NCBI GenBank assembly: GCA_000002445.1 | Contig: AE017150.2 | Coordinates: forward strand, 288,001-352,000 | Direction: 5' to 3' | From: Trypanosoma brucei | Lineage: Eukaryota | Length of the DNA stretch: 64,000 nt | Part shown: positions 10,393-17,553 of the stretch, one piece after another | How the letters are laid out: each line of letters starts with the position of its first letter | Numbering within the stretch: position 1 is the first letter of the stretch | Notes under the pieces: model-generated | Databases searched by the model: none | Told to the model about the DNA's origin: nothing | What the model saw: only the letters and a program-made list of their open reading frames with translations | Translations under genes and position numbers: made by a program

Positions 10393-10675
10393 TGTGCTCT
10401 GTGCGGAAGCGTTGTGAGTGGTATTGTGGCGTTTTATTTCATAATTATATGTAATAACATGTTTTTTTTTTAAAGGAAATATTTAATTGTTCACGTTTGG
10501 TGCAAAAGTACCAAACTTGCCCCGGCCGCCGGCCACCTCATCGTAGCGCCAGGGTCTGTACCGCTTCCAGAAGAAGGTCAAGTGCACGCATTATACCGTG
10601 TCCGAAAGGATTGGGGCCTGGAAACAGGCTGACGGCCACTAGAGAAGGAGCAAGCAGCAGCAACGGCACTCTAGG

Positions 10676-11270
10676 TTGAAGAAATATATTAGACTGCTCC
10701 TCTTCACGTACGAGCGCGTCTTGATTGGGGTACATAGGTTTCTATTACTTATTGGCGCGCATGTTGAGCGCAATCCTGTTCCATCATTCGTGGAGCTCAG
10801 TGGAATTCTGGGGATTTCTCCAGGGCAAAGTGGATCGCTTCAGCTGAGAAGCTCCACAAAGATATGGTAGTCTTCTGTTTATTTCAGGAGACTCACTTGG
10901 CAGCAGAAGAATGCTAAGCATTGAAAATCAGTGGATACCAACACGCTGGGATGGCACGCTGTCCACATGGTGGTGTGGTATAAATCATGGTCAAAAATGC
11001 CTTGGGAGTCATCCAAGGTCCGAAGGAAGAAGGTTTGCCTGAAAAAGTCTCGGCAACACTGATGTTTTCAGTTTATATAATGTTAACTATAAGATCATCT
11101 TACTTCACACCGAAGCAAAATGTCACTACCTCCACGCTTCAGATCCTTGAGAGCTCAAATAGACCACTGGTGACAGAATCTGAAACAAAGGCAGATCATG
11201 ATTTATGGGACGCGCTTTGCCCAAATGATACGGGGGGAGAATGCATTGTAAACGTGTCTAAAAAATAATA
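10676..11270 (+). pseudogene. AP-endonuclease domain remnant of the ingi-like element
   Basis: Translating 10861-10896 gives DMVVFCLFQETHL, the (D)IVxLQET(H/K) endonuclease signature, followed by a stop. The flanking ORFs are in shifted frames. Confidence 0.45.
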
Positions 11271-12105
11271 TCAAAATCGCAAATGATGGCACCCCAACGA
11301 GAAGAATGACTCACACAGAAACCATTTCGTCTCTCGACGTTACGATTTAGGGTGACTGCGAATTCACAAGATGGGAGGCAAGCATCAGTCCGGATAGTGA
11401 CCACTACTGTGTAATGTTTGAGGTGTGCATTGGCATAGGAGTAGAAATGATCGCCATTGCCAAGCCACGAAGGCCGTTGTATGCTTGGAGTAAATAATAT
11501 TGCCTGGATTCTTGAAAAAAAAAATGTGTAACGTAACAATGGTGAAAAAATTAAGGAAGTCAATAAATGTGGATGCTATGAATGAGGCAGTGAGTATAGG
11601 CATTCGCACAGCAGAAAAGAAAACAATACAGAAATGTAAGAGGAGTATTGTCACCGTTCTGGACACGATAACTGACTGAAATGGACACAAAGATAAGGAA
11701 ATGTACAAATGAGAAGCATAGAAACATGCCCTTATATACAAGAGAAGGAAGGTTGTCACTGAAACGTCCCTACAACGATTGAAGGAAAATATATCGAAGA
11801 TGTCAGTGACCGATACAAAAAGTTGGAATTTAGTAAAGCCCATATATGCACCGAGGCCACTGAAATCTCCGGTTATGGTGGTGAATGACCACCCTCCAGA
11901 ACACGCAGACAGAAAGCAAGCTAATAAGTTAGCGTAGACGTATTGAGAGAGCGGTTGACAAGAGCACTAGATGCTCCTCCCATGAGTATACCATATCGAG
12001 TGAGCGGAGAATTCGTACTAATAAAGATGGCACAACTTGAGACAGCACTGAAGGATCCCTCTTCATGCACTGCCATTCTGTAGGGATGGTAAAAATAGTG
12101 AACAG

Positions 12106-12924
12106 GTGAAGCAATTAGGACACTGCAGCAAGAAATGTGTCCTCAAGCTCTTCAACTCTAACTTAAAGGGAAACCTAGTGCCTGAAAAATGTAAGCGGGG
12201 CGTTAGCGTCGCACTACTCAAACCCAACAAAACGGCCAAGTGTATGTTATCATTCCGGCTCATCACGCTCACTAACATCCTCTGTAATCTCATGGAGAGG
12301 ATTGTAGCGCAATACATGCGAGACAAAGTAGAGTGTAAGCTACAAAAACAGCAAGCTGGTTTTCGTCCAGGGAGGTCTACGTTAGAGGCCCTGATGACAC
12401 TCACAGAATCAGTGACACATAGAATAGCAGGAGAGAAAACTGCTGCGGTATTCATAGAATATGCGAGGTCATTTGACTATATGGATTGCATGTGCATAAT
12501 AGATGCATTAAAAAGATAAAAAGTAAACATGCGCCTTATTTTGTGTGTTGCTAATTTCCTGGAGGGACGGGCTGCATTAGTACGAATAAACAACACCCTC
12601 TCAAATAAAATACAATTCACGTGTGGTGTTCCACAAGGTTCCGTGCTGGGGTCGTTGCTATTCATCATCGCAATGGACTCCCTAAGCGCGAAATTAAATG
12701 CCATTGTAGCCATTAAACACTGCTTCTTCGCAGGCGACTTCACGATAGTATGCTCTTACACTGACCGAGAAGCTATTCGGCAGACGCTCCAAACAGGATT
12801 GGATTGTATAGCGACCTGGTCAACAGGGCACTATATGGAGGTGTCTGCAGAAAAAACGGATTACACGTTTTTAAAGGTGGGAGACAAAGACTCATTGCAC
12901 CTAATGCTAAAAAAGCACAGATAA
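12106..12924 (+). pseudogene. Reverse transcriptase domain of the ingi-like element, split over two frames
   Basis: ORF 12106-12519 contains ...QAGFRPGRSTLEAL...AAVFIEYARSFD.... ORF 12529-12924 contains ...CGVPQGSVLGSLLFIIAMD...HCFFAGDFTIVC.... These match RT motifs 1-7 of non-LTR elements, with FAGD in place of the FADD box. There is a frameshift between the two halves. Confidence 0.8.
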
Positions 12925-14768: not shown

Positions 14769-16139
14769 GTGCAATCCGGAGCATAGTGAAGGAAAACCAA
14801 GTACACCGCTATAGGAAGTACTGCCCGAAAGAGAAGCATGTAAGATATGCGGTGAAGAGTATCACCACAGCTGGATGTTACGTCATATGAATGCGAAACA
14901 CCCCTGGAATGATATCTTACTCGGACCCTAGCCGATAAAAAGAGAAAAAGTGATGAATGAGATGTCAAAGTCACAAGCGACGGGAGACACTAGTGGTTAC
15001 AACAAATGATGAGGATGACAATTAACCACTACTTTATGTTTGCGACAAATATAAGAGGGGTTTCAAAAGCAATACATGGCTAACACGTCATAAGTGCGTG
15101 AGTATTTAGAAAGTGGACCAGAAAGATGAGAAGGTGAACAACACCCATGGAGCAGTTACCCGACTAGAAACCACCACCAAAAGTGGATTGAAGCCTGGCT
15201 CAATAAATAGAGCACTTCTCAACTCAGACTCGTTACACACAACAAAACTTGAGCTTTATGGCAAGAAAGAGAATAATAGACCGAGCATGATACGCCAGCA
15301 AATGAGATGGCAGTGAGCGATCAGAGATAAGAGCCCAAAAACAAACGACAAAAAGGCTCAATGGCAAACAGATAACCCACGTAGAGAGTTTGCATGTGGA
15401 AGGCGTAAGAACTCCTACATATCATTGTGTACACTAGTATGACATACCAGGACACACCGCACAAAAATGCAATCACTTTCAAGAGAATGTGTGAGAAAGG
15501 CCCTTTAAATCACGCTGCTGGCCCCTTTTTTACAGCAATGCCAACTCTGGTCGAAGGTTTGTGCACACACGAAATATCTAACAATGCTCCTCCAAGCACC
15601 ACATGGGCAGTCACGTACATCTGATAGGGGAAATGAACTAAAAGAGAAATGTAAAAAAAACATCAGCTCACCTGTTAAAGTGTTCGGCTTTGAGTAAACT
15701 AAGGTCTGAGCATGAAGTAGACAGTCCGAAAGGCGAAGATATAGATATTTTAGCATTAAACTTACCAACTTCTTAAGGGCACTCTTCGTTACGACGGTAA
15801 ATCCGGCTTCCACCGTAGACACGAAGAAATTGATAACCCAACTGCGAATGAAGAAAGAAAGGTTACTCACGCTAAACATCCATCGACTCCGTGCGACACA
15901 CTTGGATGACAGCCAGTGAGATTTTCCTCAACTGATGGAAAACAGTATCTGAAGGGGGGTTTCCTCAACAAGGCACCGTTAGCCAGGCCCCAGCGGAGGA
16001 AGCGAGTGGCGGGCCTTGAGGATGGAGAACATATCGGTGGAGAAAGTGGCCACACCGCAAGTCTATATGGATTAGTTGAGGTGCGAGCAGATTAAATGCA
16101 CATTGGAAAAAAAAAACGCAACTTTCTGACTGTTGTGCA

Positions 16140-16235
16140 TAGATGCGTGTTTTATGTGAAAAAGCGCCGCAGATGGCGTTGTAACGCCGTCTTTACAAAA
16201 TAAAGCGCAATAACATGCGTTTTACGCAAAAAATA
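16140..16235. repeat. Three degenerate relic units of the 29-bp satellite
   Basis: The units 'gatgcgtgttttatgtgaaaaagc', 'gtaacgccgtctttacaaaataaagc' and 'aacatgcgttttacgcaaaaaat' align to the satellite unit. They lie on the far side of the retroelement, just before the inverted-repeat arm. Confidence 0.6.
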
Positions 16236-16237
16236 CT

Positions 16238-17553
16238 CCGAAGTCGCGCAGCAAATCACGGGTTTACCGCTCACGGTGACTCACGTGGTGGAGGAGCAGA
16301 ACCCCCCCCCCGAAGTAGGAAGTGAGTGTTGTTTCAGTAGTGCCACAAGTGATAGGCACGACAGACCGATATTATATTCATTATTTAAACTAATGCTACT
16401 GGGTTAAAGAAAAAGGGAGGTAGGAGAAAGAGATTGAGAGGTGCATTGAAACTCCCGCAGGAAACCAGCCACTGGAAACACCAGGAGGTCAGAGGTGCGC
16501 TGCCACATGCAAGGCGAAGGAACCTGCGCAGATGGGGAAGGAAATAACGAGGCAACACACAATCGAACTTGATCACAGTCCTAAGTGAAAAAAAAACAAA
16601 AAAGCTCGCGTACTTTTTAACACAGTTACCACAACCGTAACAGCCGTTGTTAACTTCCTGAGAATGCCCTTATCCCTGTTCAATTTGGCCACAATCCATG
16701 ATGGTGATGGGCTGACGTGTGGCACCTGACTGGCTGCCGTTGGTTTCAACCTTCTCAATGACTTCGTATCCCTTCGTTACTTGTCCAAAAACAACATGTT
16801 TCCCATCCAACCAGGGAGTTGCAGCTGTGCAGATGAAGAATTGCGATCCATTTGTGTTGCGGCCTGCATTTGCCATGGAGAGCGTCCCGGGACCAAAGTG
16901 CTTCCCAGCGCGGCCCGCGAAGGACTCATCGGGAAATTTCAATCCGTATATTGACTCTCCACCCGTACCGTTACCGCTCGTGAAGTCTCCTCCCTGACAC
17001 ATGAACTGAGGGATGACGCGATGGAACTTGCTTCCCTTGTACGACAATGCCTTGCCAGATCGTCCCAGGCCCTTTTCACCTGTACATAATGCACGGAAAT
17101 TCTCCGCCGTTTTCGGTACCACATCCTTGAAGAGCTCCATTTCTACCCTTCCAGCCTTCTGGGAGCCAATGGAAATATCAAAATACACAAGTGGGTTGCT
17201 TGGATTGACAGGATAGAACGGTATCTTCCTCTGAGCTGCAAAAAAGGTGCGCGACAACATGTGTGCGGCAGGAACTAATTCTACAGCAGTGAACTTATGG
17301 GTTGTCCTTTGACCGGATGACTTGAATGAAGGAGCAACGAAAGCGCAAATATATGTACTTTTCTTTGGGGGGGGGGGGGTGGCAGTTAGTCTCGCACAAC
17401 AGTTAGCACCCGATTCCAACGCAAGTATTGACATAAACACGAGAAGGTAAACCCTTCGCGTGGCAACGCCGGTGCACAAACACTGGAAATGCATTTAACA
17501 AAAGCCGAGGGCAACCACAAGGTAACGATGCTGCTACCTCGCAGTGTAAAGGA
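16238..17553. repeat. Left arm of a roughly 1.3 kb inverted repeat carrying the cyclophilin gene and its flanks
   Basis: This arm is the reverse complement of 27413-28714 and is near-identical. The embedded ORFs are identical. The only differences I saw are G/C homopolymer lengths. Confidence 0.9.
16670..17260 (-). CDS. Cyclophilin-type peptidyl-prolyl cis-trans isomerase, 196 aa with an N-terminal extension relative to CypA
   Basis: Cyclophilin signature motifs are present: [48 protein letters not shown] and [10 protein letters not shown]. The ORF track extends this copy to 274 aa (to 17494), but only because a G13 tract fuses it to an upstream frame. The Met at 17258-17260 matches the start of the other copy. 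Confidence 0.85.

Follow-up and report, generated by a model that had tools for sequence, protein, structure and literature searches.

A decayed ingi/L1Tc-related element between satellite remnants at the centromeric repeat of Trypanosoma brucei chromosome 2

On chromosome 2 of Trypanosoma brucei, the 29-bp centromeric satellite is followed by a dead retroelement, and satellite-like sequence is present on both sides of that element. The arrangement lies in a 64,000 nt window of strain TREU927 (GenBank assembly GCA_000002445.1, contig AE017150.2, positions 288,001 to 352,000), and all coordinates below are counted from the first nucleotide of this window. An earlier note, made from the letters of this DNA, had described an ingi-like retrotransposon inserted into the satellite. 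We find that the element belongs to the DIREs (degenerate ingi/L1Tc-related non-long-terminal-repeat retroelements) and that, with a best-estimate 3′ end, it spans about 5.6 kb on the forward strand (10520 to 16116; 15660 is a less likely end). The history that we consider probable is insertion into a right edge of the centromeric satellite that was already degenerate, with decay and an inverted duplication thereafter.

Satellite sequence on both sides of the element

The window was placed on chromosome 2 by exact matches for five of its encoded proteins (e.g. XP_951504, which is Tb927.2.1600). Tandem Repeats Finder (TRF) delimits an AT-rich satellite array on the forward strand at 2384–10393, with a 29-bp unit (consensus AAGCATGTCATTACGTGTTTTATGTGCAA), 276.6 copies, 92% matches and a GC content of 0.32–0.34. 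The chromosome 2 centromeric repeat given in Table 1 of Obado et al. (2007; PMC1868937) is 8.0 kb long, has a 29 bp unit and 66% AT, and is located between Tb927.2.1470 and Tb927.2.1560. Unit length, size, AT content and the single site between gene clusters all agree, and the window array is this published repeat. According to the same paper's account of the arrays, topoisomerase-II cleavage, a marker of centromeres, maps to such T. brucei arrays, and the AT-rich centromeric arrays of the megabase chromosomes are flanked by DIRE/INGI elements (Obado et al., 2007). The locus examined here is one of these, so that the general arrangement of a centromeric repeat with a DIRE on chromosome 2 is already published, and the present work is a refinement rather than the description of a new kind of feature. 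Relative to that account of the arrays, it adds the termini of the element (exact at the 5′ side, a best estimate at the 3′ side), satellite relics distal to the DIRE and a gradient of divergence at the array edge.

This gradient is steepest on the side of the element. Identity to the consensus is 95–99% in the array core (5–8.5 kb) and ~90–93% at the left edge; at the right edge it is 83–84% at 10070–10360 and 69% at 10360–10505. For the 147-bp arrays of T. brucei, the passages of Obado et al. (2007; PMC1868937) on those arrays state that no such gradient is seen. Degenerate units, which probably represent the old right edge of the array, extend on the forward strand from 10393 to ~10515. A lenient cyclic-consensus alignment (69% identity over 10394–10519) continues to GGTGCAAAAGTA at ~10511, a few bases short of the element; the last recognizable satellite GTGCAAAAG occupies 10500–10508, 11 nt short of that base at 10520. 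Only 1.2% of shuffles attain the satellite score observed for 10394–10519, and this edge is conserved in T. b. gambiense. The element had been thought to start at most about 100 bp from a last satellite unit ending at 10392. The satellite does adjoin the element, but the gap is smaller, with degenerate units running nearly to 10520.

At the opposite, left end of the array, degenerate units at 2270–2384 lie in the opposite orientation (2384–2352, minus strand, E 0.11 against the satellite hidden Markov model, HMM), which suggests a small head-to-head inversion. A related 29-bp repeat, that of the chromosome 7 centromeric array (Tb927.7.6860–6870), is 83% identical to the chromosome 2 repeat. 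Similarity between satellite and DIRE that would point to derivation of one from the other was not significant, either by alignment against shuffles or by nhmmer.

On the far side of the element, a satellite relic lies on the forward strand at 16133–16237, where blastn-short, a window scan, shuffles and a profile HMM reveal a single clear fragment of a unit and, after it, two units that are degenerate. The fragment (16146–16165, CGTGTTTTATGTGAAAAAGC) equals a satellite unit at 19 of 20 positions, with a blastn-short E of 0.001 against the array-masked window. Under stringent scoring it tops all non-array sites, at 35 against a null maximum of 24 (~5500 window/strand tests). A three-unit profile HMM aligns over 16145–16224 with an E of 0.0089 and finds there its best non-array match in the window. 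For units 2 and 3 (16166–16237) the score is 19 on the forward strand and 36 against the reverse complement, and none of 500 shuffles reaches the observed score. Thus, alignment of the relic to the satellite consensus is significant for the first unit and by the profile HMM. The earlier note had counted three units at 16140–16235, which is generous: the block as a whole holds up as the best non-array match, but its second and third units are weak alone.

Comparison among strains bears on the nature of this relic. The relic of T. b. gambiense DAL972 is 70 nt shorter (without 16149–16218), and both endpoints of the deletion fall in direct repeats, ATGCGTGTTTTA and ATGCGTTTTA, which provides independent support for a tandem-repeat nature. 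T. equiperdum OVI carries the long form at 99% identity. Satellite-derived sequence on both sides of the element supports the proposals that the satellite, or its decayed edge, formerly reached at least 16.2 kb and that the insertion took place into or at the edge of the array; the target would have been an old, degenerate edge.

A third candidate relic, at 17810–17889, was not counted. Its lenient score is 41 against a null maximum of 29, but nhmmer returns an E of 0.38, similar to a chance match at 62.2 kb. This stretch, which lies inward of the left inverted-repeat arm described below, 260 bp from the inner end of that arm, carries AGCATGT or AGCGTGT motifs spaced ~27–30 nt apart, and it may be a further relic or a chance resemblance.

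Identity, decay and age of the element

The element opens with the 77–79-nt Pr77 hallmark (10520–10598, forward strand), the 5′ internal promoter and hepatitis delta virus-like ribozyme region of the L1Tc/ingi clade. When aligned to the published Pr77 sequences (supplement of PMC4748587), its first base, 10520 (CCCCGGCCGCCGGCCACCTCATCGTAG...), falls on Pr77 position 1. By this alignment the 5′ end is exactly 10520 and the element is 5′-complete. The window contains one match to the Pr77 core (10533–10556), where chance would produce 0. The downstream promoter element (DPE) has changed from CGTG to CGTA in TREU927 and is an intact CGTG in T. b. gambiense. The Pr77 carries TbDIRE/Tcoingi-type CTCATCGT together with AAGTGC.CGCATTA and not the Tbingi-type positions: CTCATCGT stands where Tbingi has CTCAACGTG, and AAGTGCACGCATTA where Tbingi has AAGAGCCAGCAGT.

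Translated homology to ingi-like elements of T. vivax and T. congolense is collinear over 10547–15658, in the order AP-endonuclease (APE), reverse transcriptase (RT), RNase H and C2H2 zinc fingers, all on the forward strand. The RT domain (12100–12993) is detected by Pfam as RVT_1 with an E of 3.9e-23. The FAGD that had been noticed in place of a FADD box is present, as FFAGDF at 12724–12741, and replaces the YxDD box, which is FVDD in the T. vivax element. This RT is 52–62% identical to ingi-like fragments of T. vivax and T. congolense, and no T. brucei ingi protein was among the matches of a protein search made with it. Six zinc-finger-like motifs are clustered in three frames at 14247–15106 (Pfam zf-C2H2, E 2.2e-6), collinear with those of the T. 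vivax element. A putative APE-like region (10816–11934) is spread over three reading frames; it includes an FQETH motif at 10867–10899 and is collinear by tblastn with the T. vivax and T. congolense elements. Motifs resembling those of RNase H, VWADGS ... AEGVAME ... IFTDSLS (13581–13808), are collinear with VWTDGS ... FTDSLS of the T. vivax element. A Pfam scan of the stitched APE segment and of the RNase H open reading frame (ORF) gave no domain match, even at E up to 1. Of the four segments named by the earlier note, RT and C2H2 are therefore detected by Pfam, and APE and RNase H are assigned at the level of motifs and collinearity only.

Decay of the coding sequence is extensive. At least 21 stops and at least six frameshifts lie along the homologous path; each frame of the element contains 88–106 stops, with no open stretch longer than 166 codons. 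A long ORF of the Tbingi type (~1657 aa, intact or nearly so) is not present. The length is 5597 bp if counted to an A10 run and 5141 bp to an A8 run, and DIREs are ~5–6 kb long (PMC4035085). Because of the Pr77 type, the degree of decay and the nearest relatives, we class the element as a DIRE and not as an ingi or RIME/ingi. The description of a dead ingi-like element thus stands in that the element is dead, belongs to the ingi clade and is frameshifted between domains; its assignment changes from ingi to DIRE. An exact-protein look-up of a 162-aa ORF of the element found no match, and no further DIRE copies or Pr77 hallmarks were found elsewhere in the window.

Known elements of T. brucei provide a frame for this classification. 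TbDIREs (Bringaud and co-workers, as cited in PMC4748587 and PMC4035085) likewise have a 5′ Pr77, a length of ~5–6 kb and coding capacity destroyed by stops and frameshifts. The copies Tb9.146a and Tb2.19 share with the window element the Pr77 subtype CTCATCGT plus AAGTGC.CGCATTA, and in this comparison, which covers Pr77 only, the window element differs by its DPE CGTA (TREU927) and by a 2–3-nt deletion near Pr77 positions 8–10. With Tbingi, the active T. brucei LINE (long interspersed nuclear element), and RIME, its deletion derivative, the element shares the clade, the domain order, a similar length and an A-rich sense strand. Unlike Tbingi, it differs at ingi-specific Pr77 positions (CTCAACGTG; GGGGGAAGCCAAGAGCCAGCAGT), lacks a long ORF and has an RT nearest to those of T. 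vivax and T. congolense.

The same element is found on chromosome 2 of T. b. gambiense DAL972 (FN554965.1), where its 5′ junction (...GTGCAAAAGTACCAAACTTG|CCCCGG...) is identical and the 3′ flank, too, is the same. TREU927 positions 14648–16257, which take in the relic and the 3′ portion of the element, have a 99% match in T. equiperdum OVI. Because of these shared junctions and this 3′ match, the insertion is old and fixed, and predates the divergence of these T. brucei subspecies. At 14713–14740, a stretch of ~100 nt encoding an extra C2H2 finger (YECLRCKQVYKSKTWLNRHKC) is missing from TREU927; DAL972 and T. equiperdum both have it. A T. equiperdum scaffold in which the relic and a 3′ fragment of the DIRE lie between cyclophilin and ESP10 (CZPT02001626.1, 10857–12692) was set aside; it contains three N gaps and is probably a scaffolding artefact of a collapsed inverted repeat.

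Outside T. brucei, we examined the syntenic strand-switch region upstream of cyclophilin in T. cruzi, which is GC-rich (0.55–0.69) at two loci (6600–9000 and 8100–9400) and contains, antisense to cyclophilin, a degenerate L1Tc/ingi-like element. A GC-rich strand-switch region with a degenerate L1Tc/ingi-like element is a combination associated with T. cruzi centromeres where that paper treats them (Obado et al., 2007; PMC1868937). Orthology between the T. cruzi element and the T. brucei DIRE is unlikely because orientation and distance differ.

Within the DIRE, TREU927 and DAL972 differ in a mosaic fashion. Over 10520–15695, blocks of 97–99% identity (e.g. 12493–12943) alternate with blocks of 76–83% identity (11143–12043, 13843–14440 and 15343–15643). 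One block of 150 nt (13393–13543) contains 23 transitions and a single transversion. The DNA around the element, including everything to the right of ~15695, is 97–100% identical. With the T. vivax protein as reference, decay from the RNase H to the zinc-finger region is greater in the DAL972 copy. Possible causes of this pattern are gene conversion between paralogous DIREs, deep haplotypes of the pericentromere and chimerism of the DAL972 assembly. We suggest tentatively, and hold to be doubtful, that ectopic conversion still proceeds between DIRE copies near the centromere, or that centromere haplotypes of great age, which do not recombine, segregate in T. brucei.

Placing the 3′ end, and a probable sequence of events

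The 3′ end is harder to place than the 5′ end. The earlier note had set it at an A-rich stretch near 15660 and had left the following 480 bp as flanking DNA, or possibly as part of the element. The A-rich stretch is an A8 run at 15653–15660, within the last segment that has significant T. vivax homology (15431–15658, forward strand; tblastn 37 bits, E 1e-8). The codons there (KCKKN) pair with the central part of the C-terminal region in the T. vivax element, where the frame stays open for ~150 codons more. These additional ~450 nt predict an end near 16100, and an A10 run, probably the remnant of a poly(A) tail, is located at 16107–16116. With the A8 run internal to a homologous segment and the T. 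vivax frame continuing, an end near 15660 is probably wrong.

Four further observations, each of them weak like the first, point to the A10 run. The last tract of divergence between TREU927 and gambiense passes the A8 run by ~35 nt. In addition, no satellite similarity was found in 15660–16130, which would be odd for the target DNA of an insertion into satellite and favors the A10 end. Directly after the A10 run, ACGCAACTT (16116–16125, followed by T) constitutes a candidate 3′ copy of a target-site duplication (TSD), whose 5′ copy would be ACCAAACTT (10510–10519, followed by G). Nine positions can be compared (10510–10518, which ends one base before the element, and 16116–16124), and seven of them match (P ~0.045 against random sites). 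Finally, when the element and one 10-nt duplication are removed, the flanking GTGCA motifs are 29 nt apart by hand count, or one satellite period. We judge the A10 run at 16107–16116 to be the likelier 3′ end by a reasonable measure, and the 480 bp once taken for flanking DNA are probably the element's own 3′ part. An end at the A10 run, ~18 nt before the relic, leaves no need for co-inserted flanking DNA.

Several points weigh against this placement or against the history built on it. A TSD candidate of 9–10 nt does exist where none had been recognized by eye, but it is no stronger than chance matches elsewhere; an unbiased scan of 15000–16300 gives equal or better ones, such as a 9/10 match at 15242. 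A-runs are not diagnostic, as a second A10 lies inside the body of the element at 11515–11524. By tblastn, 15661–16116 has no significant homology to any element, and the T. vivax frame lies in GC-rich DNA, so that its openness may be due to chance. The end of the TREU927/gambiense mosaic near 15695 could mark the end of sequence shared with paralogous DIREs. The 29-nt phase argument hinges on where an 8-nt deletion is placed in the first relic unit. Moreover, units 2 and 3 of the relic are marginally satellite-like and align at least as well when reversed, which makes their orientation ambiguous, and an empty site is absent from all genomes examined.

Two comparisons did not help to define the 3′ end. 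An apparent extension of the T. vivax homology to 15874 did not survive a split test, which left only 15431–15658 significant (37 of 41.6 bits). Homology to T. congolense and to two T. vivax elements used as 3′ comparators ends at 13270 and is uninformative on this point.

If the element nevertheless ended at the A8 run (~15660), 15661–16132 would be unrelated host DNA or another, 5′-truncated retroposon with its own A10 tail. The relic would then not adjoin the element, and insertion into satellite would not be required. This alternative accounts for a length of 5.14 kb, close to the 5.25 kb of ingi, for the lack of significant element homology beyond 15658, for the shift from mosaic to 97–100% identity near 15695, and for a last zinc-finger motif that stops at 15106. 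We nonetheless regard it as unlikely, given that the A8 run falls in codons whose T. vivax counterparts lie midway along the C-terminal region, and given the 35 nt by which the divergent tract goes beyond it, the absence of a TSD-like sequence after it, and the fact that 15661–16116 matches nothing elsewhere in the window or in the compared loci.

With the A10 end, the preferred history would run as follows. The 29-bp satellite, with an old and diverged right edge, would already have been in place when a full-length copy of an autonomous LINE of the ingi/L1Tc clade entered that edge through target-primed reverse transcription. The lineage of this LINE, nearer to Tcoingi and Tvingi than to Tbingi, would now be extinct in T. 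brucei, and the insertion would have occurred well before the T. brucei subspecies diverged. Units stranded to the right of the element (16133–16237) would have been cut off from homogenization and then have decayed. The array on the left would have kept homogenizing, leaving a gradient of older variants beside the element, which itself decayed into a DIRE. An inverted copy of a cyclophilin segment would have been joined onto the relic at 16238, either after the decay of the array edge or as part of it.

The order of the first two steps could also be reversed, with insertion into a proto-repeat only a few 29-bp-like units long, later amplification of the 8-kb array from the units on the left, and survival of the proto-repeat remnant as the relic on the right. 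The most divergent units do stand nearest to the element on both sides, and the 95–99% homogeneity of the array core suggests recent homogenization or expansion. However, the 83% identity of the chromosome 7 repeat suggests an old repeat family, and we hold this order of events to be distinctly improbable. Least probable by far is that 16133–16237 resembles the satellite by chance in AT-rich DNA, or that its units were carried in by the rearrangement that created the inverted repeat at 16238: although only one unit fragment is individually significant, units 2 and 3 score higher reversed and the relic ends exactly at the inverted-repeat boundary, the relic outranks every other non-array match of the 64 kb in each of three methods, shows indel polymorphism of the tandem-repeat type, lies within ~20 nt of the element's probable tail, and has no counterpart at the outer end of the other inverted-repeat arm.

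Neighbouring features and the biology of the array edge

The relic is directly adjoined by the left arm of an inverted repeat, whose start at 16238 we confirm. The arms, at 16238–17550 (minus strand) and 27404–28724 (plus strand), are 1.3 kb long, 99% identical in inverted orientation and separated into aligned blocks by a 5-nt offset at 17372–17377. Each arm contains a cyclophilin gene, and both copies are also present in T. b. gambiense. T. cruzi and T. theileri each have a single cyclophilin, which heads a plus-strand cluster (cyclophilin, a 122-aa gene, DUF7881, and others). Arm alignment together with this synteny, which the right arm matches, identifies the right arm as the ancestral copy and the left arm as a derived, inverted copy of the cyclophilin segment. 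The left cyclophilin copy reads as an ORF of 274 aa, extended at its N terminus in comparison with the right copy (196 aa), and an exact-protein look-up of it returned no match.

Between an ISG-like gene and the right arm, 7.7 kb (19700–27400) contain no ORF of at least 150 aa (the longest is 146 aa) and no Pr77 hallmark, and probably constitute a divergent strand-switch region. Further downstream, direct repeats at 36696–37084 and 39729–40120 are 99–100% identical over ~390 nt, with a start-to-start distance of 3033–3036 nt. They bracket an 802-aa gene with an EGF-like domain (37391–39799), consistent with a tandem duplication of ~3 kb. No rRNA or tRNA genes were found in the 64-kb window.

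Primate alpha-satellite arrays have a homogeneous core and older, diverged monomers at their edges, and LINE insertions are confined to these edges, where they are not removed by homogenization, a pattern that Obado et al. (2007; PMC1868937) also summarize. The T. brucei locus resembles them in its pattern of core, edge and retroelement, and differs in its far smaller scale (8 kb, 29-bp units) and in having a single element.

The analysis gives a base-pair anatomy of one T. brucei centromere edge, with a homogenized core, a diverged edge, a frozen LINE, a stranded relic and a later inverted duplication. It provides a relative order of events and leaves knowledge of centromere function unchanged. 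The strain-to-strain mosaic of the DIRE is the only part that may repay further work; if it does stem from gene conversion or from old haplotypes, the dead element would serve as a substrate for recombination, or would mark the history of centromere haplotypes, rather than being inert junk. More generally, the locus supports the view that the evolution of these small centromeric arrays of trypanosomes resembles that of larger satellites in eukaryotes, through homogenization of the core and capture of retroelements at the edge.

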